A stretch of 25,044 bases of DNA, taken from IMG/VR virus record IMGVR_UViG_2529293240_000020, positions 1-25,044 of that record. The stretch is one strand, 5' to 3'. The notes beneath the pieces are model-generated. The model ran no database searches. It had not been told where the DNA came from and saw only the letters and a program-made list of their open reading frames with translations. Position 1 is the stretch's first letter. Each line of letters starts with the position of its first letter. Source of the DNA: a virus (taxonomy: Duplodnaviria > Heunggongvirae > Uroviricota > Caudoviricetes). The translations under genes and the position numbers were made by a program. Of the stretch, positions 4,441-24,563 are shown one piece after another.

Positions 4441-4441
4441 G

Positions 4442-8418: not shown

Positions 8419-9324
8419 TTATGCCGGGGGGGTGATGTACGGGCTGTCCACGATCTCCACATCCTTGTACCAGATGTTGGAATCGCCGCCGTTAACCAGC
8501 ATGGCGTCAATAATGAGCTTCGCGTCCGCACGGTTTTTCGGCCCCACCACAAGGGTGGTCGGGCGGATGCCCAGCGGCTCACCGTTGGTGCCCTTCATGC
8601 CCCGCAGCAACTCATTGGCTTTTTTGTAGTTCTCCACCGTCAGTGCTGCACGGGAACCGACGGCGGTCTGCCAGAAGCCGAAGCCCGCATTACAGCGACC
8701 GTCCACGCCGTACAGGAACTCGTGGTTCTTGAAGGTGTGCTCGCTGTTCAGATCGTCCAGGGCTTCAAACTTAAAGGCGCGTCGCGTCTGCCAGATGATG
8801 GGTTTCAGCACCTGCGACTCATCAATCAGGAACCACGGTTCGCCCTTGTCTGATGCCGGGGTGCCGACAACGTTGCTGTACGTACCGTCACCCAGCGGGT
8901 GGTCTTCATCAAAGAAGTTCTGGCCGTCAAAGCACAGGGTGTTAAAACCGGCACACAACAGGGCGTAACACAGCTTGTCCGGGAACACAGCAGTCATACG
9001 GCCATAGCGTTCGGCGGTAATGCTGTACTGACCAATCTGGTCATCTTCAATGTGTTCACGCTTAACGCGAATGGAACTTTCCCAGAGTTTGTTGGTGATG
9101 GTGTAACCATAACCGTCCAGCGTTGCCAGCTGACGCTCACCGACCCATTCTTTGATGTCCGGTAAATCTTTCATCCAGCCGTAAGTGTTGGAGGCGGACG
9201 AACTCGGCACCTCAGAAGCAATACGATTCCACTGCGGTTCGACACCACTCAGTCCACGGGTAAAGGCGGCGCTCAGGCAGGTGGTCAGTGCATGAAGGAT
9301 TTCAGAACTGATAGTCTGTGACAT
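8419..9324 (-). CDS. Major head (capsid) subunit, Mu gpT-like, 301 aa
   Basis: Length and sequence typical of Mu-like major head subunits; position after the protease/scaffold gene. Confidence 0.8.
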   Translation of the reverse strand: MSQTISSEILHALTTCLSAAFTRGLSGVEPQWNRIASEVPSSSASNTYGWMKDLPDIKEWVGERQLATLDGYGYTITNKLWESSIRVKREHIEDDQIGQYSITAERYGRMTAVFPDKLCYALLCAGFNTLCFDGQNFFDEDHPLGDGTYSNVVGTPASDKGEPWFLIDESQVLKPIIWQTRRAFKFEALDDLNSEHTFKNHEFLYGVDGRCNAGFGFWQTAVGSRAALTVENYKKANELLRGMKGTNGEPLGIRPTTLVVGPKNRADAKLIIDAMLVNGGDSNIWYKDVEIVDSPYITPPA

Positions 9325-9331
9325 GTGTTAC

Positions 9332-10288
9332 TTACTCCTGTTTCGGTTTAGCGGCGAGGAACTCTTCCCCGGTAATACCCATGCTGCGACACATCGCCAG
9401 TTCGGCATCGGTCAGTGTCTGCGCGGGTTTATCCTTGCCCTGGCTGGGCTTGTCGTTGTTAACCAGCGGCTGTGCACCTTTGGTGTACTCCGCAAACTGT
9501 TTGCGGCCTTCTTCCGTGCGGCAGGTGGCAAGGAACATGTCACGGTTTGCCGGGGCGACTTTTCCGGCCCCGATGGCCGCATCCACAAGCGCCTCGGCTT
9601 CCTTCTCTTCCAGTTGCTGAAGGCGTTTTTCTGCGGTTTCGGCACGGTTCAGTGCCAAATTGTGGGTTTCCACCGGCACAAACTTCGTCAGGTCAGGTGT
9701 CTGTGCGCGGTTCAGCGCCACCTGTTCGTTCTCCTGAAGTTGTTTAATGGCGGCCACGGTATCGTCCACCGTGGCGGATTCAGCCAGCCCAAGCAGGCCG
9801 GTGATTTGCACAGGTACTGTCATCGGGTTTTTCTCCGTATTCAGTGCAGGAAAATCCAGGTTAGGTTTGTTGGTCAGCCCGACGCTGGACAGGCGCGTCA
9901 CCGCACCGTCTGCGTCATGGAAAAACGCCGGGCTGTAATAGCGGTAGCGGCGCTCGCTCAGCATCCACCGGGCGGACTCACTCCAGACAACACGCCCTTC
10001 AATGGTGCCGCTGTCCGTCACCCGCAGTGCTTCCACCCAGCCATACGCCGGAGCCTCTTCACCCCGCGGGCCTTTAATTTCGGTGGCATGTTCAATGTCC
10101 ACCGGAATGTTGATGTCGGACGAACGGGCAACCACCTCATGTGGATTGCGGTTCATCCACGTCCGGCCATCGCGCCCGGTGAACTCACCCGCAGGAACGA
10201 GTTCAAGCCATTCCGGCAGTTGAGCGGGTGTCAGCTCAGGGATGGGTTCTGGCAGGGAAAAACACAGCGCCAGCAGTTCCGGTTGCAT
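9332..10288 (-). CDS. Head maturation protease / scaffold protein, Mu gpI-like, 318 aa
   Basis: Protease-like N-terminal half and coiled-coil, charged scaffold-like C-terminal half (EKRLQQLEEKEAEALV...); GGAG SD 9 nt upstream of ATG 10288. Confidence 0.7.
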   Translation of the reverse strand: MQPELLALCFSLPEPIPELTPAQLPEWLELVPAGEFTGRDGRTWMNRNPHEVVARSSDINIPVDIEHATEIKGPRGEEAPAYGWVEALRVTDSGTIEGRVVWSESARWMLSERRYRYYSPAFFHDADGAVTRLSSVGLTNKPNLDFPALNTEKNPMTVPVQITGLLGLAESATVDDTVAAIKQLQENEQVALNRAQTPDLTKFVPVETHNLALNRAETAEKRLQQLEEKEAEALVDAAIGAGKVAPANRDMFLATCRTEEGRKQFAEYTKGAQPLVNNDKPSQGKDKPAQTLTDAELAMCRSMGITGEEFLAAKPKQE

Positions 10289-10331
10289 GTCAGTCTCCGT
10301 CGTCTGGGGTTACCGACGGTCAGTATGCGGA

Positions 10332-10367
10332 AGGCAGAAAAAAAGCCGGATTTACCGGCTTCACTGA
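10332..10367 (-). promoter_or_regulatory. Copy B of a ~35-bp repeated dyad element (AAGCCGG-ATTTA-CCGGCTT hairpin plus T-run on the minus strand), 50 nt upstream of the protease gene start
   Basis: Near-identical to 17871..17906 (two substitutions and one A-run length difference); minus-strand RNA would fold as a 7-bp stem, 5-nt loop, followed by UUUUUU. Confidence 0.45.
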
Positions 10368-10502
10368 AAACGGGGAAATACCCCCTTCAAAACCCCTTCA
10401 AAAACGCCACGGACGCTTCAAAAAAGCCAGGGTGTACATTCATGCCATCAGAATAAAAAACGCGTTTCTGATGCGTTTCAGGGGCATTTACGGCGGGGAG
10501 GG

Positions 10503-11255
10503 TTATTCACTGTTAAAACGGGCCTGTCTGGCCGCCAGCTCCTGCTCACGGTTTATGCCGGGATTGTAGTTCCAGCCCGGATCAATCCCTTCCGGCACCT
10601 CTTCCTCTTCGCCCGTACGTTTGTTCACCCAGCGGACAGTTCTGATTTCCGGCGCTTCGGTGTGAATGGTGCCCTGTGCCGCCAGTTGCGCATACTCACC
10701 ACGGCTGACCTGACGGATGGTGCATTTGCAGCCCCAGCCGTTAGGGGCAAAATGCGTCTGCCAGAACGGATGCTCTACCGGCAGACACAGACGCGCCCAT
10801 TTCACATGCTCCACCCGGTGCTCACGGGATGGCCCCAGCTCGTACATCAGATACGGCATGGCCTGCTTTGTCCGCTGAATGCGTTCCCACTGGCCCGCCG
10901 CGCGGGCGGTGCGCATGTTGGTATCAAAAATCGTGCGGAGGCGGCGGTCGCTGCCCAGTTGCACGGTGCGGGTTTCACCCGTCAGCGGATCATCCATCTC
11001 CTGTACGCCCCACCATCCGCGTTTTATCAGCAACGGTTGCAGCATCTCCCGGAACTCGCTGAACGTCTGCCCGCTTTGCAGGGCGTCTTCCACAAGGGCT
11101 TTCACATCCGACAACAAATCCAGTTGCAGCATTCTGGCCACGGGGAAGCTGTACCGGTGCTCTTCCCGCCACACATCCCGGTAATCAAAACCGGGACGCA
11201 GCTTCTTCGCCTTCAGCCACGCCAGCGCCTCTTTCGGGATGAGGGTTTCACGCAT
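10503..11255 (-). CDS. Head morphogenesis protein, Mu gpF-like, ~250 aa from ATG at 11255
   Basis: Position after the portal gene; ATG at 11255 overlaps the portal stop by 8 nt (the track ORF extends to 11312). Confidence 0.65.
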   Translation of the reverse strand: MRETLIPKEALAWLKAKKLRPGFDYRDVWREEHRYSFPVARMLQLDLLSDVKALVEDALQSGQTFSEFREMLQPLLIKRGWWGVQEMDDPLTGETRTVQLGSDRRLRTIFDTNMRTARAAGQWERIQRTKQAMPYLMYELGPSREHRVEHVKWARLCLPVEHPFWQTHFAPNGWGCKCTIRQVSRGEYAQLAAQGTIHTEAPEIRTVRWVNKRTGEEEEVPEGIDPGWNYNPGINREQELAARQARFNSE

Positions 11256-12819
11256 GAGCAGTGTCTCCCAGCGCACGCGCCTTAAAGCACACCTCCGCCA
11301 GTTGCAGGGCAAAGTCGTCCGCGTTCAGCGTTTCCTGAAGCTCAGGCAGGCGTTTCAGAAAGTCATCAAAACTGTCGCACTCCTGCGCCAGTGTCAGCAC
11401 CGGGTTCGTGAACGCCTCGCCGGTTTTCTGCCAGTCACGCAGGGCATCATCCACCATCTGTGCCAGTTCGTCGGGGTGTTCCCTGTTCAGGGCGACGCGC
11501 TCGCGGTTCATCGCCATATCACCCGGCATCCCGGCAGACACCGGATGCAGAACATCAGCCCCTTCGTCTGGCTCAGCCAGGCCGAACCGGTCCCGCAGCG
11601 CCGACTCCTGAACCCGCATCCCCCGGTCAATCAGCGCCACCAGAGCATCTGTCAGCGCCTTCAGATCTTCGGCTTCACTGATACGCAGAACAACACGGGG
11701 GTAGTGCGCCTGTGGCCCGTAGTTGGCCTCGATGTAGGGCCGCACCAGATATTCATTCAGCGTGTTAGCCAGCTGCCGCGCGTCCCAGCGCACAATGTCC
11801 ATGCGCACCTGATTGTGCACGTCCGCCTGTGAACGCGAACTGCCGTTATCCGTGGTCATGGTCTGCCCCAGCACAGCCTTACTGATTTGCGCATCACACC
11901 ATTCCGCCATTTCACGGAACAGTGCGCCGCCGTTATTCCGGCTGGCGGTTTCCTGCATCTCCAGTTGCATGGACTGCGGAATGGCACACCCGGCATCCGA
12001 GGCAATGGAGGCAATCGCATCAATCAGTACGCGGATTTGCTCCTCCGTGGCGTTGGGACCGTATTTCCCCACCGTGACCGGAATGCCGAATTTTTCCGCG
12101 AATGCCCACCAGTCACGCACGGTAAAGGATTTCAGCATGTACATTACCGCCACCAGACGGGCCAGACCGTTACGCAGCGGCAGACCGGATTTCAGGCGCG
12201 GCTGGTGAACAATGAATTTTCCCGGTGTCAGTGGTACACCATCCACCGGTTCATCATCCGTCAGCAGGCGGAACTGGCGCAGTGTGGGCTTTTCGGCTTT
12301 CAGAAAACGGGGATCAACCCACTCATAATCACGGGGCACCCAGTGATTGTTACGGGTGTTCCACAGAATTTCACAGACCGCCACGCCTTTTCCCAGCCCG
12401 TCGAGCAGATCAAACATCAGCTCGGGGATTTGCGGGGCTTCCATCAGCGCACGGATGGCGTCCGCCAGCTGCACGTCAGCATCGTCATCACTGGCCGCCA
12501 CCACCACCGGTTCGATACCCGCCACCGTCAGCTTGCGGGTGCGCAGTACCGAGGCGTAATGCAAATCGCGTTCTTCCATCTCTTCAGCAAGGATAAAAAA
12601 ATCACGCGTGATACCGTCGGCGGCATTGCGCAGAATACCGGCCAGTCTGCCGGGATTCAGCCCGGAGGCGATGCTGATGCCCGGAGAGGCCGGACGCACA
12701 CCCGCCTGACGCGGACGGGCCTGTACTTCATCGAGCCTCTCTTTTTTCAGCGTGTCTTCCTCACCGGTTGCCGGGTTCAGCAGACGGCGAACGGCCCCGG
12801 CCAGTTGTTTCAGGTTCAC
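11248..12819 (-). CDS. Portal protein, Mu gp29-like, 523 aa
   Basis: Size and position immediately after the large terminase gene with ATGA-type overlap. Confidence 0.8.
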   Translation of the reverse strand: MNLKQLAGAVRRLLNPATGEEDTLKKERLDEVQARPRQAGVRPASPGISIASGLNPGRLAGILRNAADGITRDFFILAEEMEERDLHYASVLRTRKLTVAGIEPVVVAASDDDADVQLADAIRALMEAPQIPELMFDLLDGLGKGVAVCEILWNTRNNHWVPRDYEWVDPRFLKAEKPTLRQFRLLTDDEPVDGVPLTPGKFIVHQPRLKSGLPLRNGLARLVAVMYMLKSFTVRDWWAFAEKFGIPVTVGKYGPNATEEQIRVLIDAIASIASDAGCAIPQSMQLEMQETASRNNGGALFREMAEWCDAQISKAVLGQTMTTDNGSSRSQADVHNQVRMDIVRWDARQLANTLNEYLVRPYIEANYGPQAHYPRVVLRISEAEDLKALTDALVALIDRGMRVQESALRDRFGLAEPDEGADVLHPVSAGMPGDMAMNRERVALNREHPDELAQMVDDALRDWQKTGEAFTNPVLTLAQECDSFDDFLKRLPELQETLNADDFALQLAEVCFKARALGDTAHA

Positions 12820-14351
12820 AGTAAACCTCCCTCATTTTTCAGGCCACGCGTCAGCTTCATCTGGCGGCGTGCGTTGCGCTCTTCCGGTTTCGCCGGGCGG
12901 TTCAGGCGGTGCAGCTCGTAACGGTGGCAGTCATCTTTACTGGCAAGGAAGCCCAGGAAAATAGCCACAGCGGCGTCGCCGTGACGCTTGCGGCCATCGC
13001 TGCCTTTAGTACGGGCATCGTCAATACCGGGAACGCCACGCAGTAACTGAATGGCCCCGAGGTCATTGATCACGTCTTCATGCTTCGGAAGGATCAGCTC
13101 ATCATCTTCAAACGCCGCACGGAAACGGGGCATGTTTTCGCGGTAGAACGCCACGGACAGCATCACCTGTTCCACCTCGTCGCCGTATCGTTCTGCCGCC
13201 TGTTCTGCCAGATACTGACCATTACCCCGCGCATCCATTTTGATACCGTCACGACGGGGCAGACGATCGCAAAGCCAGAACAGCACCTGCTCCTGCTGTT
13301 TAAACGGCACATTGGCAAGCTCAACCAGAAACGGCACCTCGCGGGTGGTGTCGTCGTTCACCGTCACCGGGGCCAGCACGGTCAGGTCACCCGAACGCGC
13401 AAAGTCTTCCCCCAGACAGTGGCGCAGATTCTTCGGGAGTTTTTCCAGCTCGGGGCGCACCACCGTTTCCAGCCATTCCCGGATATCTGCCCGGCGCTGA
13501 CTTTCCGTCAGTGCGTTAAATTCCGGTGTGCCGGTAAAGCGCAAGACTTTCCCGGTGCCACGGGCCGCACGTTCACGCAGTGAGCGGGGGATATACGTGC
13601 CGCCGCCGTTTTTCGGGACGCAGTAATATTCCTCCAGCGCATCTTCGCGGGTGGCGGTATTTCGCAGCAGGCCTTCTTTCCATTCGGCCTCGGCTTCCGG
13701 TGACCACACCATGCCGCGCACCTGACAGATACGCCGGTACAGCCCGTCATTGCAGGCATCATCCAGCGTGATGGTGTGAATACGGTAATCTTTTTTGCCT
13801 GCGCGGCTTTCCTGAATCAGCTGGTTAAACGGGTTGTCCACGCCGTCATGGGTGGAGATAAGGCGAACCTTACCGCCCCACGTGGTCAGTGGTGTGACCG
13901 CTTTGAGTACCTCATCCAGCTTTTCATGAAACGCCGCTTCGTCGATGGTGACATTCCCCTGCATCCCGCGAATGTTGCCCGGATTACTGGACAGCGCCTT
14001 GACCTTAAATCCGCTGGCGAAGTACACGACGAACGTCAGAATGTCCTTGTCTTCGTCGGTGATCACTTCCTCGCGGATTTCTTCCGCGGCTGCATTAAAC
14101 GCTTTTGCCCACATCGCCACGGCGTCGATAAATTCGCGGGCCATCTCCTTATTCGAACCGATGTAAAAGTGATCGCATCCGCCGTTTTCCTTCTTCAGTG
14201 ATGCGGTCAGTGCCGCATCTGCCGCTTCCGCCCAGGTTAAACCGGTACGGCGGGATTTTTCGGCGATTTTCAGTTTTGAATCATCCGCCACCCAGCGTTT
14301 CTGATACGGCAGCAGAACATCGGATTCACTGAATGCGTTCATCTGTGTCAT
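12816..14351 (-). CDS. Terminase large subunit, Mu gp28-like, 511 aa
   Basis: Size, ATPase-like N-terminal region and acidic nuclease-like C-terminal region, position upstream of the portal gene. Confidence 0.8.
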   Translation of the reverse strand: MTQMNAFSESDVLLPYQKRWVADDSKLKIAEKSRRTGLTWAEAADAALTASLKKENGGCDHFYIGSNKEMAREFIDAVAMWAKAFNAAAEEIREEVITDEDKDILTFVVYFASGFKVKALSSNPGNIRGMQGNVTIDEAAFHEKLDEVLKAVTPLTTWGGKVRLISTHDGVDNPFNQLIQESRAGKKDYRIHTITLDDACNDGLYRRICQVRGMVWSPEAEAEWKEGLLRNTATREDALEEYYCVPKNGGGTYIPRSLRERAARGTGKVLRFTGTPEFNALTESQRRADIREWLETVVRPELEKLPKNLRHCLGEDFARSGDLTVLAPVTVNDDTTREVPFLVELANVPFKQQEQVLFWLCDRLPRRDGIKMDARGNGQYLAEQAAERYGDEVEQVMLSVAFYRENMPRFRAAFEDDELILPKHEDVINDLGAIQLLRGVPGIDDARTKGSDGRKRHGDAAVAIFLGFLASKDDCHRYELHRLNRPAKPEERNARRQMKLTRGLKNEGGLL

Positions 14352-14929
14352 ACACTAATCCCCAGAATTTCACGTTTGATGGTGTCAGCCGCACCGCCTG
14401 ACAGACCGCCCGCTCTGACCAGCTCTTCGGTTTTCTCTGCCATTTCCTGCGCAAACGCATCGCGGATTGCTTTTTCGCGTTTATGGCTGGTCATGGCTGC
14501 CGCTTCCAGACGCTGGGCAACCAACGCCAGTTGCCCCAGCGCCTTCGGTGCAACAGGTTTGTCGTCTTCTGTCATCGACATGGACGTTTCAAAGGCCAGC
14601 GTTTTTACAAACTCCATCAGCAGCCTGCCGACATCTAACGTCGGCGCGGAACCCAGCTTTGCCGCCCAGACTTCGGCCATTTCGCGGGAGGCGCGGATTT
14701 TTGCCCCGACTTTTTCCATGCGGCTGGCATAGCGGTTTAAGCCCGTCCGGCTTAACTGCATCCCCCCCGGCAGGTTATGTTCGTCAATCAGGGCATTGAT
14801 GGCTTCGCGGATTTCTTCCTGCGTGTGCCGCTTTTCCCGCAGCATCTGGTGTAACTGCTCACGGATGCTGTCCGGGAGTAAATCCACTTTGGAAAGACGG
14901 CCACGGGTGGGGCGTTGTTCATTTTCCAT
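14348..14929 (-). CDS. Putative small terminase / DNA-binding protein, Mu gp27-like, 193 aa
   Basis: Immediately upstream of and overlapping the large terminase gene; charged helical protein. Confidence 0.5.
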   Translation of the reverse strand: MENEQRPTRGRLSKVDLLPDSIREQLHQMLREKRHTQEEIREAINALIDEHNLPGGMQLSRTGLNRYASRMEKVGAKIRASREMAEVWAAKLGSAPTLDVGRLLMEFVKTLAFETSMSMTEDDKPVAPKALGQLALVAQRLEAAAMTSHKREKAIRDAFAQEMAEKTEELVRAGGLSGGAADTIKREILGISV

Positions 14930-15206
14930 CTTCTGTCCTCTGTGTTTTCAGACCGGCGTATATTTCTTCACGAACGGACTGAATATCCTTACCCAGCAGC
15001 TTCCACAGCCGCGCATATGCCGGTGATGAACGCAGGGCACGTTTCACGGGGGTATCCGGTGCATCCGGGTTCCAGGGCTTTCCGGTCTGTTGTTCGTATG
15101 TACGGACAATGGCGTTTTGCTCGATATCTGCCAGCACAAGGCAGTACGCCAGCTGCCGCACGACGGCCCGTTCTCCACGACTTAACGGCTTCAGTTTTCG
15201 GGCCAT
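14919..15206 (-). CDS. Hypothetical phage protein, 95 aa, basic
   Basis: ORF with ATG start, overlaps the downstream gene start by 11 nt, same-strand operon context. Confidence 0.4.
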   Translation of the reverse strand: MARKLKPLSRGERAVVRQLAYCLVLADIEQNAIVRTYEQQTGKPWNPDAPDTPVKRALRSSPAYARLWKLLGKDIQSVREEIYAGLKTQRTEDGK

Positions 15207-15208
15207 GT

Positions 15209-15502
15209 TCAGTCCCTCGCACGGGGTTTTTTAACGCCCGGCACACCGGACAGGCCGTTTGCCACATCCTCGCCGCTGCCGGTGATTTCAGCCACGTAAC
15301 AGCCGCCCACATCAGACAGACGAACCAGCCCCTGCTCGCGCAGCCATGCAAGCTGGGTGCGCACCACATCACGGGATACCTTATGACCGTAGGCCTGAAG
15401 GCAGGTCTGCAACACGGATTCATTCGCGCTGTCGCCACAGTCCAGCAGGGAACGCAGCAACACCAGACGACGGTCTTCAGTGAGGATCTCTTTCATCGCC
15501 AT
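15209..15502 (-). CDS. Hypothetical phage protein, 97 aa, possible winged-helix DNA-binding fold
   Basis: ORF in operon context; ATG at 15502 or 15496. Confidence 0.4.
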   Translation of the reverse strand: MAMKEILTEDRRLVLLRSLLDCGDSANESVLQTCLQAYGHKVSRDVVRTQLAWLREQGLVRLSDVGGCYVAEITGSGEDVANGLSGVPGVKKPRARD

Positions 15503-15806
15503 TAATTTTTTCCTTTAATTCGTTCTCTAATAACAAATCGCTGATGCGGGATACCTGGCGGATGGATGGCCCCAGCTCTTTGATTTCACCCCGCAGGTTG
15601 CTGATATCCAGTTGCAGGCGGTGAAATTCATTGCGGTCGGGTAGCTGATTCACCAGGCCTTCCATCACCGACACGCGGGAACGCAGCGAATCAAACTCTT
15701 CGCGTTTGACGTAAGTCTTCGCCAGAATCAACTGGAGAAAGTTAATCCCCGTCATCAGCAATGCCCACAGAATGGGCCAGTTGGCTCTGATCACTTCCCA
15801 GGACAC
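15477..15806 (-). CDS. Membrane protein with N-terminal transmembrane helix (WPILWALLMTGINFLQLIL) and coiled coil; possible lysis accessory protein (Mu gp25/releasin-like or i-spanin-like). Start ambiguous: GTG 15806 or GTG 15794, the latter forming a GTGA overlap with the traR-like stop
   Basis: Hydrophobic N-terminus followed by a heptad-like charged region; position in the lysis cassette. Confidence 0.4.
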   Translation of the reverse strand: MSWEVIRANWPILWALLMTGINFLQLILAKTYVKREEFDSLRSRVSVMEGLVNQLPDRNEFHRLQLDISNLRGEIKELGPSIRQVSRISDLLLENELKEKINGDERDPH

Positions 15807-16018
15807 GTTTTCCTCCTGCGCTCCCGCGCCTGCTGACAGTCAATACAGGTCACCACATCAGGCAGTGCCGCAAGGCGCTGTGCCGGAATAACGTTCCCGC
15901 AGTCATTGCAGAAGCCCCGACTGTGGGGTGCTTCTTTTATCCGCATCAGCCAGGCGTTAACGACGTCCTGACGTTCGTTTAAAACCACTTCACTGATGCG
16001 GTCGGTTTCATCGGTCAT
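15791..16018 (-). CDS. TraR/DksA-family C4 zinc-finger protein, 75 aa
   Basis: CNDCGNVIP...(17 aa)...CIDCQ four-cysteine motif and size typical of phage TraR-like proteins; ATGA overlap with the upstream gene. Confidence 0.7.
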   Translation of the reverse strand: MTDETDRISEVVLNERQDVVNAWLMRIKEAPHSRGFCNDCGNVIPAQRLAALPDVVTCIDCQQARERRRKTCPGK

Positions 16019-16623
16019 TTCGGCCCCGCTGATATTTTGTGACAGCTCGATTTGCTGTAACGGGCAAAGCCGTCAAGGGTTCTTACCCCGAGATAGCCCA
16101 GCGCCGGGGTAAACAACATCAGCGTGATATCCCAGTCCGGTGACGGCATATGCAGCGTGATACCGTTCGCACCGGCAACCGCACCGGCAATCTGGCCACA
16201 GGAGAGCAACAGCACATAGGCCAGACTGCTGTAACAGGACAGACGGGCCAGCAACGGGCGCGTCTGGCGCACATAGCTGTCCGTGGCGTTGTCACCGTTG
16301 CGGATGGTTTCCTGTTGTTCGTGGTGAGCGGCCTGCTGGTCAGCCAGCACCAGCTTCTGCCGCTCCACCTCCAGCTGTTGCAGCTGGACTTTCAGGGTTT
16401 CCAGCTGCACCAGTTGCTCCGGTGACAGCATCACCAGTTTTTGTTCCAGAATGCGTTGCTGTTCAGCCACCGGCAGGCTTTCCCGGACGCTTTCCACCAT
16501 ACCGGCCACCGAGTCAGCGGCGGCAGATGTGCTGCCACCAAACCAGCGCCCGACGGAACGAATCAGCCCCGGCCCGGCTTTCAGCAGAACGGAGGCGATG
16601 CCTGAAAGGGTTAACGGGTCCAT
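16015..16623 (-). CDS. Phage membrane protein, 202 aa: soluble coiled-coil N-terminal region and hydrophobic C-terminal segments; possible holin-like or lysis-associated protein
   Basis: Hydrophobic stretches LSCYSSLAYVLLLSCGQIAGAVAGA and ITLMLFTPALGYLGV; position downstream of the endolysin gene. Confidence 0.45.
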   Translation of the reverse strand: MDPLTLSGIASVLLKAGPGLIRSVGRWFGGSTSAAADSVAGMVESVRESLPVAEQQRILEQKLVMLSPEQLVQLETLKVQLQQLEVERQKLVLADQQAAHHEQQETIRNGDNATDSYVRQTRPLLARLSCYSSLAYVLLLSCGQIAGAVAGANGITLHMPSPDWDITLMLFTPALGYLGVRTLDGFARYSKSSCHKISAGPK

Positions 16624-17021
16624 GAATCCCCCTTATGAAAACGGCGCTGATGTTTATAAAGTGCCGCACAAAAGATACCGCCCAGCCAGAACGCCAGCTG
16701 ATAAGGCTCCTTCAGATAAAGAAGGCCGAATGTCAGCATGAAAAAACCAACGGCCCAGACCACCCATGACCACACGACAATTCGAAGGGAGGCGGCCCGG
16801 AAACGCCTTTTGGGTTGCAGGCGATAAGGTACGTTGCCCAGCTGGAAACTGTGAATCAGGCAGAGTGTCGCGCCGTATGCCAGCACCATGACCGCAAACG
16901 CCCGCCATCCGGCAAAACAGCTCGCCAGAAAAAGTACTGCCGACAGCCCCAGAAACGACCACTGGCACAACATAAAGCGGGAGTAAATAACGCGAACAAA
17001 AAGACTATTCATTCTGTGCAT
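16611..17021 (-). CDS. Integral membrane protein with four predicted transmembrane segments, ~136 aa from ATG 17021; holin candidate
   Basis: Four hydrophobic helices; the likely start overlaps the stop of the upstream small ORF. Confidence 0.45.
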   Translation of the reverse strand: MHRMNSLFVRVIYSRFMLCQWSFLGLSAVLFLASCFAGWRAFAVMVLAYGATLCLIHSFQLGNVPYRLQPKRRFRAASLRIVVWSWVVWAVGFFMLTFGLLYLKEPYQLAFWLGGIFCAALYKHQRRFHKGDSWTR

Positions 17022-17232
17022 TGAGTTTTTCCTTGTACTTCTGGCACTGCCAGAAAATGTCCCGTGTATCCACGGTGTTCCAGCCACGCATGTAGTAGCT
17101 GGCGTGTGTGCCGTCATGGCCGGTATAGTCCAGCGGTTTCGGAGGCGGACCTCCGGCCATACGGTGCAGAACCTCCTGACGCAGGCGGTCGCGTCGCCCG
17201 GCTTTCAGTGAGGCATCCCAGCCTTTGCCCAT
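17005..17232 (-). CDS. Hypothetical small phage protein, 75 aa, no transmembrane segment
   Basis: ATG one nucleotide after the endolysin stop (TGA-T-ATG); operon context. Confidence 0.4.
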   Translation of the reverse strand: MGKGWDASLKAGRRDRLRQEVLHRMAGGPPPKPLDYTGHDGTHASYYMRGWNTVDTRDIFWQCQKYKEKLNAQNE

Positions 17233-17233
17233 A

Positions 17234-17821
17234 TCACCCCCGCGTGGCGGACGGCGCGTTGTCGATGATTTCCAGACAGGCGTCGGTCAGTTCTTCCATG
17301 CGGTTAAACCATCCGTTCAGGTATTTGCCCTGGGCGGGTTTTGATTTGATGATGTCGGCATAAAAGCGGGAACGACGGACAATACAGCGGGTCAGCAACC
17401 AGTCCGGGTTAGACAGGTTCACGGCCCTGCGGGTACGCGGGCCGATGATGCCGTCAGCATCCACATCAGCGGCTTCCTGCAAAATTCTGATGGCTTTTTT
17501 AACGCCATGCTGAACCGCCGCATCGAACACAAACAGCGCTACACCATCAGGCCACTGCTCACACCCGGCTGGCAGCCAGTAATCGCGCCAGTAAATCTGC
17601 GCAGCCTGTTCGCGGGTCAAATCTTTGATGCGGGTATCCGGTTTGCCGTCTCCGTTGACGTCGGTTTTGCCGTCAATCACACCGTCGCGGCGGTCAGAAA
17701 TGCCGTATCTGGTTTCGCCGCCACGGTCAGTGGGGTCATTGACATAGACGCCTTCGATATCGGGACGCAGAATAAAATTCAGCGCATACTCAAAGGCCGG
17801 GGAGAATTTTTGATTTTCCAT
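17234..17821 (-). CDS. Endolysin: glycoside hydrolase family 108-type lysozyme domain with C-terminal peptidoglycan-binding domain, 195 aa; no N-terminal signal-anchor
   Basis: Motifs EGVYVNDPTDRGGETRYGI, REQAAQIYWRDYW and DGIIGPRTRRAV are characteristic of GH108 plus PG-binding endolysins. Confidence 0.75.
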   Translation of the reverse strand: MENQKFSPAFEYALNFILRPDIEGVYVNDPTDRGGETRYGISDRRDGVIDGKTDVNGDGKPDTRIKDLTREQAAQIYWRDYWLPAGCEQWPDGVALFVFDAAVQHGVKKAIRILQEAADVDADGIIGPRTRRAVNLSNPDWLLTRCIVRRSRFYADIIKSKPAQGKYLNGWFNRMEELTDACLEIIDNAPSATRG

Positions 17822-17833
17822 AAAAGCACCTGT

Positions 17834-17860
17834 GAAGCAGATTTAAACGTGGTCTGCTTC
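17834..17860 (-). promoter_or_regulatory. Perfect 8-bp inverted repeat GAAGCAGA-N11-TCTGCTTC, 13 to 39 nt upstream of the endolysin start codon
   Basis: Read directly from the sequence; lies in the presumed 5-prime UTR or operator region of the lys operon. Confidence 0.3.
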
Positions 17861-17870
17861 ATGGTGCCGG

Positions 17871-17906
17871 AGGCATAAAAAAAGCCGGATTTACCGGCTT
17901 CATTGA
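17871..17906 (-). promoter_or_regulatory. Copy A of the ~35-bp repeated dyad element (hairpin AAGCCGG-N5-CCGGCTT plus T-run on the minus strand), beginning 6 nt after the Mor/C-like stop codon
   Basis: Near-identical to 10332..10367; has the structure of a Rho-independent terminator for the minus strand and sits at the distance from the lys start expected for an activator site. Confidence 0.5.
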
Positions 17907-18356
17907 TTAAGGACGTCGTGGCGGACGACGAACGGGGTGAGGCAGGTTCGGGGAGTGGTAAAACAAATCCGGCTGGTATTTATTACACTCCAGACGCCGC
18001 ATCCGCTTGATGGCCTTGTAGACGGTTTTATACGTCACCCCGTAACGCTGAACCAGTTCAGGAATATTATGGCCGTTAAAATCACGCCAGATACGCATAT
18101 CCCGGACAAGATTCTCCAGAATATTCCCCCTCGGAACATAAACCTGCATCCCGCCGATATAGCGACAAATCGCCACAACCAGCTCAAGGGAATGGGCAGG
18201 GTCTGCGCCAATCCTGGCCAGCTCTTTACGCAGCAGTGCGTTCAGTTCAGAAAGTAACGCCGGATAAGCCGTGTTTTCCTGGTAATCGTTAAGGTATTCC
18301 AGAACGCTGTCGTCCCGGAAGTCTTCGAATAAATCCTGCTCTTTCATCTGTTTCAT
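17907..18356 (-). CDS. Mor/C-family transcriptional activator (Mu middle/late gene activator family), 149 aa
   Basis: C-terminal HTH-like region (IPELVQRYGVTYKTVYKAIKR) and size typical of Mu Mor/C proteins; position between the gemA-like gene and the late genes. Confidence 0.7.
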   Translation of the reverse strand: MKQMKEQDLFEDFRDDSVLEYLNDYQENTAYPALLSELNALLRKELARIGADPAHSLELVVAICRYIGGMQVYVPRGNILENLVRDMRIWRDFNGHNIPELVQRYGVTYKTVYKAIKRMRRLECNKYQPDLFYHSPNLPHPVRRPPRRP

Positions 18357-18904
18357 ACAGCAATTCTCCCGCTGTTTCGTGCGCGGGCATACGCACTGGT
18401 CAGTGCATCATAGCCGCGCAGCTCCTGCCCGGTTTCGCTCACAGGTAAAGGCACACCATGTCGGGCAAAGGCTTCACGGATGCAGCGCATATGCCACTGT
18501 TTGAGCGTTTCGAGCACAACCTGCAACGATTCCCCGTGACACCAGGCCAGCGTGGAAACACCCTGACCGCCATTACGTCTGGCTGTCAGGCGTTCAACGT
18601 ATTTGTCCAGCGCAGCGTCGCTGATATCGGAGACGAAACCATCAAGGAACATCTGCTGCCAGATTTTATAAATCTTCTCGCGCGGTGTGACATGCCCCTT
18701 AAAGCGACGGCGGGGATGTTTTTTCTGCTTCTTAAAACCGCGCTCTTTCATGGCATCGAGCACACGTTCCAGTTGTGCAACGGAAAGCTCGCGGCAACTG
18801 GTTTTGCCCGTGCACTGCACCAGAAAGGTGCGGTAAGTGTCATCGTCGAGTTGCAGGTCACGACGGGCAACATGAATTAATTTAATCAGGGATGTGCAGC
18901 TCAT
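18353..18904 (-). CDS. Mu gp16/GemA-like regulatory protein, 183 aa
   Basis: Sequence character (LIKLIHVARRDLQLDDDTYRTFL...GKTSCRELS) and position immediately upstream of the Mor-like gene with ATGA overlap, as in Mu. Confidence 0.55.
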   Translation of the reverse strand: MSCTSLIKLIHVARRDLQLDDDTYRTFLVQCTGKTSCRELSVAQLERVLDAMKERGFKKQKKHPRRRFKGHVTPREKIYKIWQQMFLDGFVSDISDAALDKYVERLTARRNGGQGVSTLAWCHGESLQVVLETLKQWHMRCIREAFARHGVPLPVSETGQELRGYDALTSAYARARNSGRIAV

Positions 18905-19217
18905 TATGTCCCCCCGGATTTAAAATTAATTCGGTGTTGAATAGCTCTTTACTCATTCGATGTAGCACATCGAGGGCGGCAACTGCCGCTACTTTATCCT
19001 GGCTGGCAATGATTTTTCGTAATTCCTCAATAATCCAGGCTGGACTTAATGATTCGGCAATCATCGTGCGTTTTTCTGAAATTAAATTTTCTCTGGCCTG
19101 CTCATAGCGTTGGTATACGACATTATCCAGAAAATCATTTACCTTTTGTTCTGACATGCCACTGGAAATTAAGGTTGCAGCCATTAAATCAGCATCAGTA
19201 ATCATCTGTATTTTCAT
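18882..19217 (-). CDS. Hypothetical early-region protein, 111 aa, AT-rich
   Basis: ATG at 19217; its first 23 nt overlap the reconstructed stop of the IS911-disrupted gene; its end overlaps the gemA-like start. Confidence 0.45.
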   Translation of the reverse strand: MKIQMITDADLMAATLISSGMSEQKVNDFLDNVVYQRYEQARENLISEKRTMIAESLSPAWIIEELRKIIASQDKVAAVAALDVLHRMSKELFNTELILNPGGHNELHIPD

Positions 19218-20550: not shown

Positions 20551-20809
20551 CAGCCAGGCAATCACCGTTGTAGCAGGCATTGTCGATAACGCTTTTTATT
20601 ATTCTTATCAGCGATGGCAGTGTGGTGTTTTCCAGAATTTCCAGCCTGAACTGCTTCAGCCAGTATTCATATTCAGCTTCATCAAATGGACGCTCACCCA
20701 TCAGTTCCGTCAGTGTTGCATCGGCCTGCTCTGGCGTATATCCACTGACAACCAGTTGCGCCCGCATTTCAGCCCGATATTTCGGGTCGTCATAAATACG
20801 TTTACTCAT
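20551..20809 (-). pseudogene. 5-prime fragment (86 codons) of the early gene disrupted by IS911; the remaining 24 codons of track ORF 20477..20809 are read from the IS911 end
   Basis: ATG at 20809 overlaps the upstream stop (ATGAGTAA); the frame runs into the IS terminal repeat at 20550. Confidence 0.5.
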
Positions 20810-20984
20810 TTCTTAATGCATCCTCACAATAAAAGATTTCACCGGGATAACGTTTTTGTATGCGCTCCATCACCTGCATACATGCCTGCTCTGTGGGCCA
20901 GATTTTTTCTGTTACAGGTATGGCATCGCAGGCATCATTCCCACAGGTGCCAACCAGCAGGACAAAGCCAATTGACTTAATCAT
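20802..20984 (-). CDS. Small exported protein, 60 aa: N-terminal signal peptide (MIKSIGFVLLVGTCG, possible lipobox) and four cysteines
   Basis: ATG at 20984 overlaps the upstream stop (ATGATTAA); hydrophobic N-terminus followed by Cys. Confidence 0.45.
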   Translation of the reverse strand: MIKSIGFVLLVGTCGNDACDAIPVTEKIWPTEQACMQVMERIQKRYPGEIFYCEDALRNE

Positions 20985-21516
20985 GCCCGCTGATTTCCTG
21001 TGTTTCCGCCGGAACCGGTGAATAATCAAGAATGAGATAGCGCAGGACGTGGTCGGTGATATTCCAGCCACTGGAGCCACAAATAAAACGACCCAGCCGG
21101 ATATCGATATACGCCATCACAAAACGGGGCATTCCCTGTTTGCACATCTCGTCATCCACTTCAGCAACGATGTAAACCGGCTCGCAGGTCAGTACGCCTG
21201 TCGCAAATTCTTTTGCCAGTGCCGGAATGGCGTTACCTTCCAGCCAGGGCAAAGAACGACGGAACGTGCACCATGCAGCATCATCAACCCCTGGCAGCTC
21301 CGTTGTGTTTCGCCTTACAGGTGACGTCAGACGAGGGCGCGGAACGTCATAAAATCCGTTGCATTCGGTGAGCACTCCGGCATCAACCGCATCACGCAGG
21401 AAATACACCATTGACGAGGGCAGCATATTCATTTTTTCAGCCAGAACCCCGCAGGTCAGACGCCCGTAAGCCCGTAATAATGTGCTGACACCGTTCAGAA
21501 CTTTTGCATCAATCAC
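20977..21516 (-). CDS. Hypothetical protein, 179 aa, GTG start with GGAGG Shine-Dalgarno 8 nt upstream
   Basis: GTG at 21516 lies 3 nt after the upstream TAA; the SD is embedded in the last codons of the upstream gene. Confidence 0.5.
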   Translation of the reverse strand: MIDAKVLNGVSTLLRAYGRLTCGVLAEKMNMLPSSMVYFLRDAVDAGVLTECNGFYDVPRPRLTSPVRRNTTELPGVDDAAWCTFRRSLPWLEGNAIPALAKEFATGVLTCEPVYIVAEVDDEMCKQGMPRFVMAYIDIRLGRFICGSSGWNITDHVLRYLILDYSPVPAETQEISGHD

Positions 21517-21519
21517 CGG

Positions 21520-22068
21520 TTATTCCTCCGTCAGTGCCACAAATTCAGAATGTTTAATGCGCTGGCATTCGGCAGGAACCGGTCCCTTAACCTCACCATC
21601 CAGCAGGCACACCTCAAACAAAATGCCGAATCCGTCACGGCTGTGGTGCATCGTCCAGACTGATTTGAGATCAAACATGTTGGGTACAACATCAACCCCG
21701 AGTTCATTACACAACCAGACCGGGAATGTGGGATATTTCCGGAGTTGCTCTTCATGTTCCTGAATAAGCGTCGCATTGTTTCGGCCTTCCGGTGTTGTTA
21801 TATCCGGTACAACGCCATAAAACTGAAATCCACCAATAAACAGTCCGTCTGATTTACCACGCCATAATTCCGGCGCTAATTGATTCATCCAGATACATTC
21901 AACCCGTTCATACCCTCTGTTACTGACAAGGGAAACACCGTCTGCGCCAAACGCACGCTGCAATGAGCAGATGATTTTGTCACGCTTAACAGAAACATCT
22001 TTCAGCCAGCGAATCGTATAACCGTTAGCGGCTGCGTCACTCAGTTTAAAATAAGCATATGCTTTCAT
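21520..22068 (-). CDS. Hypothetical protein, 182 aa (MKAYAYFKLSDAAANGYTIRW...)
   Basis: ATG at 22068 with GAGG 8 nt upstream; the track ORF extends to 22125 but those ATGs lack a comparable SD. Confidence 0.5.
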   Translation of the reverse strand: MKAYAYFKLSDAAANGYTIRWLKDVSVKRDKIICSLQRAFGADGVSLVSNRGYERVECIWMNQLAPELWRGKSDGLFIGGFQFYGVVPDITTPEGRNNATLIQEHEEQLRKYPTFPVWLCNELGVDVVPNMFDLKSVWTMHHSRDGFGILFEVCLLDGEVKGPVPAECQRIKHSEFVALTEE

Positions 22069-22299
22069 ATTCATTTCCTCTGGTCCTGATTCAGGCGCGA
22101 GCAATCCCCTGACGCATCGCGCCATAATTAAAAGAAAGTGAATTAATTAAATATTCGTCGTGGTATTAAATACCGGCTTCCTGTTCAAACGGAATAATAG
22201 AAAAATCTTCAATGCCTGATTTAACTGTAATTCCGGCGACACCTGCGACTGCTTTCGGCTCCAGTAAAATCGCTTCCTTGTTGAGGTAATGACTCCAAC

Positions 22300-22803
22300 T
22301 TACTGATAGTGTTTTATGTTCAGATAATGCCCGATGACCTTGTCATGCAGCTCCACCGATTTTGAGAACGACAGTGACTTCCGTCCCAGCCTTGCCAGAT
22401 GTTGCCTCAGATTCAGATTATGTCGCTCAATGCGCTGAGTGTAACGCTTGCTGATAACGTGCAGCTTTCCCTTCAGGCGTGATTCATACAGCGGCCAGCC
22501 ATCCGTCATCCATACCACGACCTCAAAGGCCGACAGCAGGCTCAGAAGACGCTCCAGTGTGGCCAGAGTGCGTTCACCGAAGACGTGCGCCACAACCGTC
22601 CTCCGTATCCTGTCATACGCGTAAAACAGCCAGCGCTGACGTGATTTAGCACCGACGTAGCCCCAATGTTCGTCCATTTCAGCGCAGACAATCACATCAC
22701 TGCCCGGTTGTATGCGCGAGGTTACCGACTGCGGCCTGAGTTTTTTAAGTGACGTAAAACCGTGTTGAGGCCAACGCCCATAATGCGTGCACTGGCGCGA
22801 CAT
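22300..22803 (-). CDS. insB: IS1 InsB (transposase catalytic part, made as an InsAB-prime fusion by frameshift)
   Basis: Sequence characteristic of IS1 InsB (...[28 protein letters not shown]...). Confidence 0.8.
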
Positions 22804-22997
22804 CCGACGCCATTCATGGCCATATCAATGATTTTCTGGTGCGTACCGGGCTGAGAGGCGGTGTAAGTGAACTGTAGTTGCCATGTTTTACGGCAATGAG
22901 AGCAGAGATAGCGCTGATGTCCGGCAGTGCTTTTGCCGTTACGCACCACGCCTTCAGTAGCGGAGCAGGAAGGACATCTGATGGAAATGGAAGCCAC
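22722..22997 (-). CDS. insA: IS1 InsA (zinc-finger DNA-binding regulator), 91 aa
   Basis: [40 protein letters not shown]... characteristic of IS1 InsA. Confidence 0.85.
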
Positions 22998-24438: not shown

Positions 24439-24458
24439 TGCCGGGTTTCCATAGTTTT

Positions 24459-24509: not shown

Positions 24510-24563
24510 AAGGATCGGATTTAATTAGTTGGCATCAGACTTCGCGGGACAAATTCGGGGCAC

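Follow-up and report, generated by a model that had tools for sequence, protein, structure and literature searches.

The gene studied here lies at 15791..16018 on the minus strand of a 25,044-nt stretch of viral DNA (Caudoviricetes; IMG/VR record IMGVR_UViG_2529293240_000020), referred to below as the window. It consists of 75 codons followed by a TGA stop, as read from the open reading frame list and the sequence, and we call it the TraR-like gene. Its product, MTDETDRISEVVLNERQDVVNAWLMRIKEAPHSRGFCNDCGNVIPAQRLAALPDVVTCIDCQQARERRRKTCPGK, carries four cysteines (C37, C40, C58, and C61) in the spacing CxxC-17-CxxC. The ORF list, the sequence and the cysteine spacing thus bear out the original prediction of a 75-aa C4 zinc-finger protein at this position. 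The zinc ribbon is encoded by codons 37–61 (15836..15910, minus strand), which include I44, P45, and R48 (R48 codon at 15875..15877). Codons 3–8 (15995..16012, minus strand) encode D-E-T-D-R-I, the tip motif of the N-terminal helix, in which DxxDxI replaces DxxDxA.

Both ends of the gene overlap its neighbors. At the 5′ end, the TGA of the 202-aa upstream ORF (16015..16623) and the ATG of the TraR-like gene have two bases in common within an ATGA at 16015..16018 (minus strand), so that the translational-coupling overlap proposed earlier can be read directly from the sequence. In all related loci inspected, the stop of the upstream gene overlaps with the start of the TraR-like gene, mostly as ATGA and by 8 nt in one of them (L029). 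A second junction, absent from the original prediction, is located within the 3′ end of the gene (15804..15817, minus strand), where AGGAGG (15817..15812) is followed after 5 nt by the GTG start (15806..15804) of a gene encoding a DUF2730 protein. The DUF2730 ORF overlaps the final 16 nt of the TraR-like ORF, and its Pfam match starts at residue 4 counted from this GTG. An Rfam scan detected no RNA elements in or close to the TraR-like gene.

Gene Order and State of the Prophage

The genes around the TraR-like gene are all on the minus strand, with ends that overlap or abut, and follow the order endolysin, membrane proteins, TraR-like, DUF2730, gp26-like, small and then large terminase. The endolysin gene (17234..17821), with GH108 and PG_binding_3 domains in Pfam, is the first gene of the late lysis operon. 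The 202-aa protein encoded immediately upstream of the TraR-like gene (16015..16623) contains a coiled coil and hydrophobic C-terminal segments, belongs to PHROG 1544, and gives a weak GTA_holin_3TM match. The DUF2730 protein (15477..15806; Pfam PF10805, E 5.5e-29) is a member of the family of Mu gp25, the “releasin” whose function has been described (PMC9239132). It is followed by a protein of the VpaChn25_0724 family (15209..15502; NCBIfam NF050184, 120.7 bits) that is 59% identical to Mu gp26 by tblastn, by a Mu gp27-type small terminase (14348..14929; Pfam PF11985, E 3e-54), and by a large terminase (12816..14351), so annotated in a 98%-identical E. coli prophage.

Upstream of the endolysin gene there is a Mor/C-family transcription activator (17907..18356, minus strand; Pfam PF08765, E 4e-30), and between the two lies an intrinsic terminator with an 8-bp GC-rich stem and a T run (17881..17901, minus strand). 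This terminator marks the boundary between middle and late operons, as in Mu. Since the TraR-like gene is downstream of the terminator, behind the Mor-family gene, it is a late gene. The gene order and the terminator together uphold the placement in a late lysis and packaging operon that had been suggested. No promoter that would make the TraR-like gene a moron expressed in lysogeny was found near it, nor was any sigma-70-like promoter found there.

The same gene order was present in all 80 of the 80 related IMG/VR loci, and also in Klebsiella phage Kp4866-3, Vibrio phages martha and ZX4290, and Shewanella MuM16-2. The 202-aa protein was found directly upstream wherever the upstream flank was recovered, and the large terminase was kept in all loci that reached far enough downstream. 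When the neighborhood of DUF2730 was surveyed by tblastn against isolated phages (16 records), its association with the zinc-finger gene was documented in gammaproteobacterial Mu-like phages only; in the one alphaproteobacterial case, Rhodovulum phage P1, the slot before DUF2730 holds a hydrophobic 69-aa protein.

The prophage in the window is a decayed, IS-riddled Mu-like remnant. Compared with an intact prophage of 97–98% identity, its tape-measure region is cut by IS66- and IS3-family elements and it is truncated by IS1 near gam; the early region and part of the tail genes have been lost, and no Mu A/B transposase genes occur within the window. This comparison covered close relatives only. 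The element was present in 50 of 5426 complete E. coli genomes, and a Shigella sonnei protein is 99% identical to the TraR-like protein. Megablast of a 4.1-kb block against the GenBank phage collection gave no matches. The element is known solely as a prophage and as IMG/VR contigs, its phage relatives having been found by protein-level search.

Assignment to the TraR Branch

Profile searches placed the protein in the DksA/TraR family. Residues 33–67 matched Pfam PF01258 (zf-dskA_traR) over profile positions 2–36 of 36, at 45.4 bits against a gathering score of 24.9, and the full-length protein matched PHROG 54 (“DksA-like zinc-finger protein”; E 4e-19). NCBIfam TIGR02419 (phage/conjugal plasmid C-4 type zinc finger, TraR family) aligned with residues 3–66 over positions 1–64 of 64, although the score of 58.0 bits fell 1.7 below the curated cutoff of 59.7. 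The best sequence match in the PDB was TraR in complex with RNA polymerase (5w1s_M; residues 2–70 on 2–70, E 1.6e-6). An exhaustive search retrieved 4456 cluster representatives at E<=1e-3. Among close relatives the gene has a dN/dS of about 0.26, and it is under purifying selection. With PF01258, PHROG 54, the number of homologs, and the dN/dS, chance is excluded as the origin of ORF 15791..16018, which is a genuine gene. Its length of 75 aa is close to the 73 aa typical of the TraR branch.

Two other zinc-finger assignments were discarded. DksA proper does not fit a 75-aa protein that scores 24–30 bits with the DksA equivalog models (cutoffs 105–289) and matches only their zinc-finger part. 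The Ogr/Delta late-gene activators of P2-like phages are also C4 zinc fingers of small size, but the Ogr_Delta profile was not matched; PF01258 and a weak DZR hit were all that Pfam gave at E<=0.01.

In an alignment of 104 TraR-size representatives, the most conserved family positions (89–100%) that are also present in the TraR-like protein are D3 (91%), D6 (94%), C37 and C40 (both 100%), I44, P45, R48 (99%), P53, C58 and C61 (both 98%), Q62, and E66. R48 was also invariant in a 97-sequence alignment, and D3 and D6 are invariant within the close clade of the protein. The exception is position 8, where the alanine conserved in 89% of the representatives is absent; all close relatives have isoleucine here, as the TraR-like protein does, whereas more distant Mu-like relatives have alanine.

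An AlphaFold2 model built from the 97-sequence alignment (pLDDT 78.8) consists of a helix at residues 4–27, the zinc ribbon, and a helix at residues 59–70. These elements correspond to those published for TraR, namely the N-helix (2–27), the globular domain (28–57), and the C-helix (58–73) (PMC6970531). In a Foldseek search of the PDB, the top 11 matches were all TraR/DksA-family proteins, the best being TraR bound to RNA polymerase (6n57_M; E 6e-4, probability 1.00, rmsd 4.6 Å over 68 columns). An earlier AlphaFold model, for which the alignment had 9 sequences, gave a poor superposition on TraR (rmsd 11 Å), which we attribute to the relative orientation of the helices. TM-scores of about 0.5 are as expected of an elongated three-element protein modeled without its binding partner. 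Sequence, profile, and predicted-fold evidence therefore agree with the TraR-family identity proposed in the original prediction, and assign the protein to the TraR-size branch of the DksA/TraR family. The label itself is not new, as the RefSeq name is already “TraR/DksA C4-type zinc finger protein”.

Relation to Characterized Proteins and Mu-like Counterparts

TraR of the F plasmid (PDB 5W1S, 6N57), with 73 aa against 75, aligns with the TraR-like protein end to end without gaps in the PDB alignment and is 32% identical. The cysteines have identical residue numbers, D3, D6, I44, P45, R48, P53, Q62, and E66 are held in common, and the three predicted structural elements are alike. Both genes are embedded in a long operon of structural and export functions, and not in a regulatory region. 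However, TraR has A8, P43, and E46/R49/K50 where the TraR-like protein has Ile, Val, and A/L/A, and TraR comes from a conjugative plasmid, whereas its counterpart comes from a transposable prophage and is known here from its sequence. Leucine occupies position 49 in most (63%) of the nearest family representatives, so the β′Si3 contact set is a trait of TraR itself and not of the whole family.

Among phage homologs, P2 Orf82 is 33% identical to the TraR-like protein. Both have the DxxDxI tip and uncharged A46 and A50, but Orf82 keeps R49 where the TraR-like protein has L49, and it is an early gene on the Pe transcript with the replication genes, in contrast to the late TraR-like gene. Orf82 and TraR bind RNA polymerase equally well, and the IC50 of Orf82 for inhibition of rrnB P1 is 250 nM, a five-fold lower potency than that of TraR (PMC9239242). 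Orf82 has also been observed to complement a dksA deletion. Lambda Orf73, also TraR-size, is 27% identical, and its D3 and D6 are required. With Orf73, rRNA promoters are inhibited, the host grows more slowly, and the burst is about 4-fold larger; the protein is a poor activator, as is also predicted for the TraR-like protein. Orf73 differs in its early expression, driven by pL within the exo-xis region, and in having a perfect DxxDxA tip and two extra cysteines. DksA (151 aa) has in common with the TraR-like protein the zinc-ribbon globular domain, the C-terminal helix, the acidic tip and, by homology, probably the RNA polymerase site, and it was matched both by sequence (1TJL, E 3e-4) and by Foldseek (7khi_M, 1tjl_A). 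DksA contains a two-helix coiled coil and is fully active only with ppGpp, whereas the TraR-like protein has just one N-terminal helix and nothing equivalent to the region that contacts ppGpp.

Relatives in isolated phages are the DksA-like proteins of Mu-like phages martha 12B12 (VPCG_00028), ZX4290, MuM16-2 (p23), and Kp4866-3, with 33–51% identity. Their genes occupy the slot between a ~200-aa membrane protein and DUF2730, ahead of the gp26-like and small terminase genes. The tips read DxxDxA in martha, ExxDxA in ZX4290, DxxExA in MuM16-2, and KxxDxA in Kp4866-3, so that an acidic tip is maintained across Mu-like phages of Escherichia, Klebsiella, Vibrio, and Shewanella; several of these proteins have no basic C-terminal tail. 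The experimentally characterized X. bovienii Gp34 shows that a KxxDxA tip is functional. Gp34 was considered as a member of the Mu-like clade and set aside, as its sequence, translated from the Table S4 gene block, has a P2-like C-terminus (…KHYRSE).

Mu itself has gp24 in the equivalent position. This 64-aa protein has the CxxC-17-CxxC spacing and is encoded directly before gp25/DUF2730, as the TraR-like protein is. It has neither DxxDxA (its N-terminus is M-N-E-D-Q-N-R-A) nor R48, and it ends four residues past the last cysteine, leaving no C-terminal helix. In hhalign, its zinc ribbon matched the TraR-like profile with a probability of 36% when the profile had 9 sequences, and of 75% (E 2.6e-5) when it had 97. 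PF01258 gave no match to gp24 even at E<=10, and gp24 belongs to a different PHROG (3260). Given the weak hhalign result and the absence of PF01258, gp24 was not accepted as a TraR homolog and is treated as a positional counterpart of uncertain homology.

Discussion

We consider it likely, with a probability of roughly 0.7, that the product of this gene is a TraR-type regulator acting by direct binding to RNA polymerase. RNA polymerase binding, effects on promoters, and physiological role are inferred here by homology. The protein keeps those features that published mutagenesis has shown to matter, that is D3, D6, R48, the C4 site, and the C-terminal helix (PMC9239242; PMC6970531). By analogy, its N-terminal helix (approximately residues 4–27) would enter the secondary channel of the host RNA polymerase and place D3 and D6 beside the active-site region, the zinc-ribbon globular domain would rest on the β′ rim helices via R48, and the C-terminal helix (approximately residues 59–70) would touch the β lobe/Si1. 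E. coli RNA polymerase has both β Si1 and β′Si3 (PMC6970531), and the E. coli and Shigella hosts of this element accordingly carry an enzyme with these proteobacterial insertions. Bound in this way, the protein would alter the conformation of the polymerase with no need for ppGpp or for DNA contact, and inhibit promoters with short-lived open complexes, such as those for rRNA and ribosomal proteins. The gene would be co-transcribed with the lysis and packaging genes and translationally coupled to its neighbors, which would place the appearance of the protein in the later half of the lytic cycle. There it would turn polymerase and precursors away from ribosome synthesis and towards the late phage genes. 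All phage TraR homologs characterized so far are early genes, and the late role of the TraR-like protein is thus an extrapolation.

The residues that depart from TraR allow some predictions about potency. The D3N and D6N substitutions cripple lambda Orf73 (PMC9239242), and both residues are present here. Ile8 predicts a lower potency than that of TraR, as was measured for P2 Orf82. It weakens the case for a TraR-like action, yet as it is shared with the active Orf82, function is still possible. An alanine variant of TraR P43 binds RNA polymerase poorly (PMC6970531), and the corresponding residue is Val in the TraR-like protein. Alanine at the TraR β′Si3 contacts (E46, R49, K50) halves activation (PMC6970531), and A46/L49/A50 accordingly predict weak activation through β′Si3. 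With these contact positions uncharged, the factor is predicted to inhibit rather than to activate.

This last prediction bears on the improbable alternative that the protein binds RNA polymerase as TraR does but was selected for a positive role, as a co-activator of the phage Mor/C-dependent late promoters with feedback on its own operon, and not for shutting off host ribosome synthesis. It would fit the location of the gene within an operon controlled by the adjacent Mor-family activator, and F TraR, itself encoded in the long tra operon, raises transcription from pY, ptraM, and ptraJ 2- to 3.2-fold in vitro (PMC9239242). However, the residues responsible for β′Si3 activation in TraR are replaced here, lambda Orf73 gave no activation of lambda lytic promoters (PMC9239242), and only the intergenic region, but no late promoter sequence, was identified. 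A rather more probable, if still doubtful, reading is that in this particular genome the gene is an intact but silent passenger of a decaying prophage. With the early region and part of the tail genes lost, the TraR-like gene may be silent in this host, and in a truncated prophage the “late development” of the original prediction may no longer take place. The IS66/IS3 cuts, the IS1 truncation, the missing Mu A/B genes, and the lack of a nearby sigma-70-like promoter all point in this direction. On the other hand, the TraR-like ORF is intact, as are its neighbors and the gene for the Mor-family activator, and silence in this host would leave unchanged what the protein is and how it acts when made.

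It is also conceivable, although we regard it as quite improbable, that the main role is local and that RNA polymerase is not the relevant target. The zinc ribbon would then bind a partner encoded in the coupled genes (the 202-aa membrane protein, the DUF2730 releasin, membrane-tethered and cytoplasmic, the gp26-like protein, or the terminase) and tune lysis timing or packaging. The gene is strictly fixed between two membrane-associated lysis-cassette proteins, overlapping or abutting both in every lineage examined, although adjacency of genes is by itself weak evidence of interaction. Because Mu gp24 retains the cysteine spacing while lacking the tip motif and the C-helix, the slot can be filled by a protein probably unable to act like TraR; the Mu lysis study nevertheless gave gene 24 no lysis role. 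The TraR-like and DUF2730 genes are the fastest-evolving of the block, with median identities of 53% and 57% against 66–76% for their neighbors, a pattern that co-evolving partners could produce. There is also a precedent in the QisA-TraR of VP882, a phage TraR homolog complexed with a phage partner, but the phenotype of that complex still depends on the RNA-polymerase-binding motif (bioRxiv 10.64898/2026.07.27.740977). The conserved acidic tip has reaching the polymerase active site as its only known role, and it is retained throughout the Mu-like phages mentioned above. R48 and E66 are likewise retained. In a highly speculative variant, which we think very unlikely, gammaproteobacterial Mu-like phages would have a conserved lysis module of translationally coupled genes (the 200-aa membrane protein, the TraR-like protein, and the DUF2730 releasin). 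The TraR-like protein would belong to it as an integral component, held or released by the releasin cytoplasmic domain or by the upstream neighbor, so that the state of RNA polymerase would be linked to the timing of endolysin release where a holin clock may be absent, as shown for Mu. Mu gp24 would then be a derived version that keeps the partner-binding zinc ribbon only.

Direct action of the TraR-like protein on RNA polymerase remains our preferred reading. The idea of a TraR regulator in a phage is not new, as phage TraR homologs were characterized in 2022, and this gene opens no new class of mechanism, being an ordinary and previously annotated member of a known family. It does offer a natural test of two structure-function predictions, one concerning Ile8 at the tip and the other the loss of the β′Si3 contacts. 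If our reading holds, transposable Mu-like phages bring with them a switch for the host RNA polymerase that works independently of ppGpp. They would express this switch late, together with lysis and packaging genes, unlike lambda, P2, VP882, and VHML, and the period in which phage TraR proteins are known to act would become wider. Our reading would also give a likely function to an unexplained gene in the lysis cassettes of many Mu-like phages, beside the recently described releasin.

Identity of the TraR-like gene

The original prediction was that a 75-aa C4 zinc-finger protein of the TraR family, translationally coupled to the preceding gene, is embedded in the lysis and packaging operon, and this observation is confirmed. 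The ORF comprises 75 codons plus TGA at 15791..16018 on the minus strand and encodes MTDETDRISEVVLNERQDVVNAWLMRIKEAPHSRGFCNDCGNVIPAQRLAALPDVVTCIDCQQARERRRKTCPGK, with cysteines at positions 37, 40, 58, and 61. It matches Pfam PF01258 with 45.4 bits (gathering score 24.9) and PHROG 54 from end to end (E 4e-19). When 1.84 billion cluster representatives were searched with a profile, 4456 matched at E<=1e-3, and most of the top matches were 65-80 aa long and aligned end to end. Among close relatives, dN/dS was 0.26, which indicates purifying selection. On these four counts it is a real gene. The coupling was read directly: the coding strand carries ATGA at 16015..16018, so that the TGA of the preceding ORF, for a 202-aa coiled-coil/membrane protein (16015..16623, minus strand), overlaps the TraR-like ATG. 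At the other end, a DUF2730 gene starts at a GTG (15806..15804) that lies 5 nt downstream of AGGAGG (15817..15812) and 16 nt ahead of the TraR-like stop codon.

The top sequence match in the PDB was F-plasmid TraR in complex with RNA polymerase (5w1s_M, E 1.6e-6, residues 2-70 aligned to 2-70 without gaps), followed by YbiI and DksA. In an AlphaFold2 model built with 97 family sequences (pLDDT 78.8), three helices (residues 4-27, a short one of residues 46-51, and residues 59-70) accompany a zinc ribbon; TraR, as determined by cryo-EM, comprises an N-terminal helix (2-27), a globular domain (28-57), and a C-terminal helix (58-73) (PMC6970531). Foldseek returned TraR (6n57_M) as the top PDB match (E 6e-4, probability 1.00, rmsd 4.6 A, 68 columns), and matches 2-11 all belonged to the TraR/DksA family. 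The full-length match to the TraR-family model TIGR02419 scored 58.0 bits, narrowly (1.7 bits) under its cutoff of 59.7, and the family tip motif DxxDxA (residues 3, 6, and 8 of the N-terminal helix) is present in part, without its A8. By all sequence-based criteria the protein belongs to the TraR-size members of the DksA/TraR family, and it probably works like one. DksA itself was ruled out by the single helix, the length of 75 aa, and scores far under the equivalog cutoffs, and an Ogr/Delta-type activator by the Pfam scan. The TraR-type interpretation is already reflected in public annotation, where the RefSeq name of the ortholog WP_000129102.1 is "TraR/DksA C4-type zinc finger protein".

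Genomic context and late transcription

The window represents a transposable, Mu-like prophage from E. coli or Shigella. Of 5426 complete E. coli genomes, 50 contain the 4-kb block surrounding the TraR-like gene, with 93-97% identity, and the nearest protein in a large collection was a Shigella sonnei entry (99% identical). The prophage is a remnant: of the window, only 2394..2685, 3947..18907, and 20800..22284 align with an intact prophage (97-98% identical). Its tape-measure region is interrupted by an IS66-family transposase gene (758..2359, plus strand) and an IS3-family orfAB (2726..3882, comprising 2726..3544 and 3580..3882, minus strand), its early region is truncated near gam by IS1 (from 22300; 22300..22803, with 22722..22997), and no Mu A/B transposase genes were found in the window. 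Beyond IS1 lie a P4-type tyrosine integrase gene (23197..24438, minus strand) and, adjoining it, the tmRNA gene ssrA (24643..25005, minus strand; tag ANDENYALAA). The stretch 23197..25005 looks like an ssrA-integrated island abutting the IS1-truncated remnant.

The late genes are on the minus strand, as are a GemA/gp16-like gene (18353..18904), a Mor-family activator gene (17907..18356), and the strong intrinsic terminator (17901..17881) after the latter, which mirrors the C-lys boundary of Mu. The order continues with a GH108 endolysin gene (17234..17821), a 75-aa ORF (17005..17232), a membrane ORF (16611..17117; phrog_12596), the 202-aa ORF, the TraR-like gene, and genes for DUF2730 (15477..15806), a gp26-like protein (15209..15502), a 95-aa ORF (14919..15206), a Mu gp27-type small terminase (14348..14929), and the large terminase (12816..14351). 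The DUF2730 family includes the Mu gp25 "releasin", which is required for freeing the Mu SAR endolysin (PMC9239132). On the minus strand from endolysin to terminase, no comparable terminator and no sigma-70-like promoter were found. The TraR-like gene therefore belongs to the late lysis/packaging transcription unit, as its place in the gene order also indicates. The late promoter must lie across the terminator or just downstream of it; the candidate region is the intergenic stretch of only 85 nt between the Mor-family and endolysin genes (17822..17906), about 30 of which are taken by the terminator stem-loop and T run.

Within this unit, the first 75 of the 284 positions of phrog_2121 match the 75-aa ORF and positions 91-273 match the 202-aa ORF, the two parts being separated by the overlapping membrane ORF. 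In Vibrio phage martha they are neighboring genes. This pattern suggests that the two parts form one fused protein in some phages but are split, with a gene inserted between them, in the lineage of the window.

Conservation of the arrangement

A pattern scan of IMG/VR yielded 80 loci, mostly contigs of 28-37 kb, with TraR-like proteins 42-97% identical to the query. Within contig extent, all 80 carry the 202-aa protein, TraR-like, DUF2730, gp26-like, small terminase, and large terminase genes in this order, and the identical order is annotated in four isolated phages (Vibrio martha 12B12, Vibrio ZX4290, Shewanella MuM16-2, and Klebsiella Kp4866-3). In every locus inspected the preceding stop codon overlaps the TraR-like start, mostly as ATGA (by 8 nt in one IMG/VR locus, L029), and the DUF2730 start overlaps, abuts, or is within a few bases of the TraR-like 3' end. 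TraR-like and DUF2730 diverge fastest in the block, with median identities of 53 and 57% vs 66-76% for the other genes (loci of intermediate divergence among L005-L084, the IMG/VR set, positions about 3001-3530). In Burkholderia phage KS10, too, a dksA/traR gene separates the lysis genes from the small terminase gene, as its authors pointed out in 2008 when they speculated on a regulatory role (PMC2628397). In the alphaproteobacterial, Mu-like Rhodovulum phage vB_RhkS_P1, the slot before DUF2730 (2221..2430 of locus L089) holds a 69-aa hydrophobic glycine/alanine-rich protein with no cysteines and no zinc finger.

In Mu itself, gp24 (64 aa; 2525..2719 of the Mu locus L004) directly precedes gp25/DUF2730. 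It has the CxxC-17-CxxC spacing of TraR, but neither the DxxDxA tip nor R48 nor a C-terminal helix is present. Comparison with the TraR family by hhalign gave a probability of 75% over the ribbon only, and no PF01258 match was found in gp24. It may be a degenerate TraR relative.

Functional residues

A working TraR homolog is marked by three elements: an N-terminal DxxDxA motif extending to the active-site region, a C4 globular domain with R48 (rim helices) and R49 (beta'Si3), and a C-terminal helix in contact with beta Si1 (PMC9239242). Among 104 TraR-size representatives the most conserved positions were D3 (91%), D6 (94%), A8 (89%), C37/C40 (100%), I44 (95%), R48 (99%), P53 (90%), C58/C61 (98%), Q62 (89%), and E66 (92%), all kept in the TraR-like protein save A8, which is Ile. 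P2 Orf82 has the same DxxDxI variant; it binds RNA polymerase as well as TraR does and complements a dksA deletion on induction, and it inhibits rrnB P1 with an IC50 of 250 nM vs about 50 nM for TraR, the weaker potency being put down by its authors partly to the absent A8 (PMC9239242).

Position 6 was acidic in all Mu-like sequences examined, although the Klebsiella-type clade has Lys or Arg at position 3. The DxxDxA tip occurs in the Brenneria type, Vibrio phage martha, and six IMG/VR loci (L079-L084), K/RxxDxA in the Klebsiella type (KxxDxA in Klebsiella phage Kp4866-3 and relatives), ExxDxA in Vibrio phage ZX4290, and DxxExA, the Gre-factor form, in Shewanella phage MuM16-2. The homologs with varying tips in these phages lie in loci L087 (2274..2489), L088 (2259..2480), and L001 (5001..5231). 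An experimental precedent for the KxxDxA tip is X. bovienii Gp34 (IC50 of 415 nM; PMC9239242). The retained acidic position 6 would be difficult to account for if the helix no longer extended into the polymerase. Several Mu-like clades (68-72 aa) are without the basic C-terminal tail.

The beta'Si3-interface residues E46, R49, and K50 of TraR are A46, L49, and A50 in the TraR-like protein. Single Ala substitutions at these TraR positions leave binding intact, inhibition intact or mildly impaired, and activation halved (PMC6970531). A mainly inhibitory factor is therefore predicted. Most of the closest family members (63%) have L49, and the beta'Si3 contacts of TraR, absent here, are not family-wide.

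Proposed role in the late stage of development

The interpretation of the TraR-like protein as a putative TraR-type RNA polymerase regulator is supported by homology. It would need neither ppGpp nor contact with DNA to bind in the secondary channel of the host RNA polymerase, and would destabilize the short-lived open complexes of rRNA and ribosomal-protein promoters. Produced alongside the lysis and packaging proteins, it would, in the later half of the cycle, shift polymerase and precursors to the expression of late phage genes. A similar role was proposed for lambda Orf73, with burst size up about 4-fold. The characterized phage homologs are all early genes, whereas this one is in a late operon; F TraR offers a parallel, being encoded within the long tra operon, on which it exerts positive feedback (PMC9239242).

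By analogy with F TraR, the protein might instead co-activate Mor/C-dependent late promoters. We consider this unlikely, as the activation contacts are lost and lambda Orf73 leaves lambda promoters unaffected (PMC9239242). Slightly less probable still is a local role in the lysis and packaging module, exerted through a partner protein. The rigid gene position and translational coupling would fit it, as would the rapid co-divergence of TraR-like and DUF2730, the action of VP882 TraR in complex with a phage partner (bioRxiv 10.64898/2026.07.27.740977), and Mu gp24, which occupies this slot and shows the cysteine spacing without the tip motif, R48, or C-terminal helix; the conserved acidic tip and R48 argue against it. 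A functional link between TraR and releasin seems the most doubtful of these proposals. As the prophage is a remnant, the TraR-like gene may be silent in its present host, and the description "during late development" may not hold for this strain; silence would leave the identity of the protein unchanged.

The TraR-like gene and its setting are no new kind of system. What is modestly new is its strict place beside the releasin family within the late lysis module of Mu-like phages of gammaproteobacteria, the spread of tip-motif variants among these phages, and the suggestion that the TraR-like slot is filled in Mu by a stripped-down protein, gp24.
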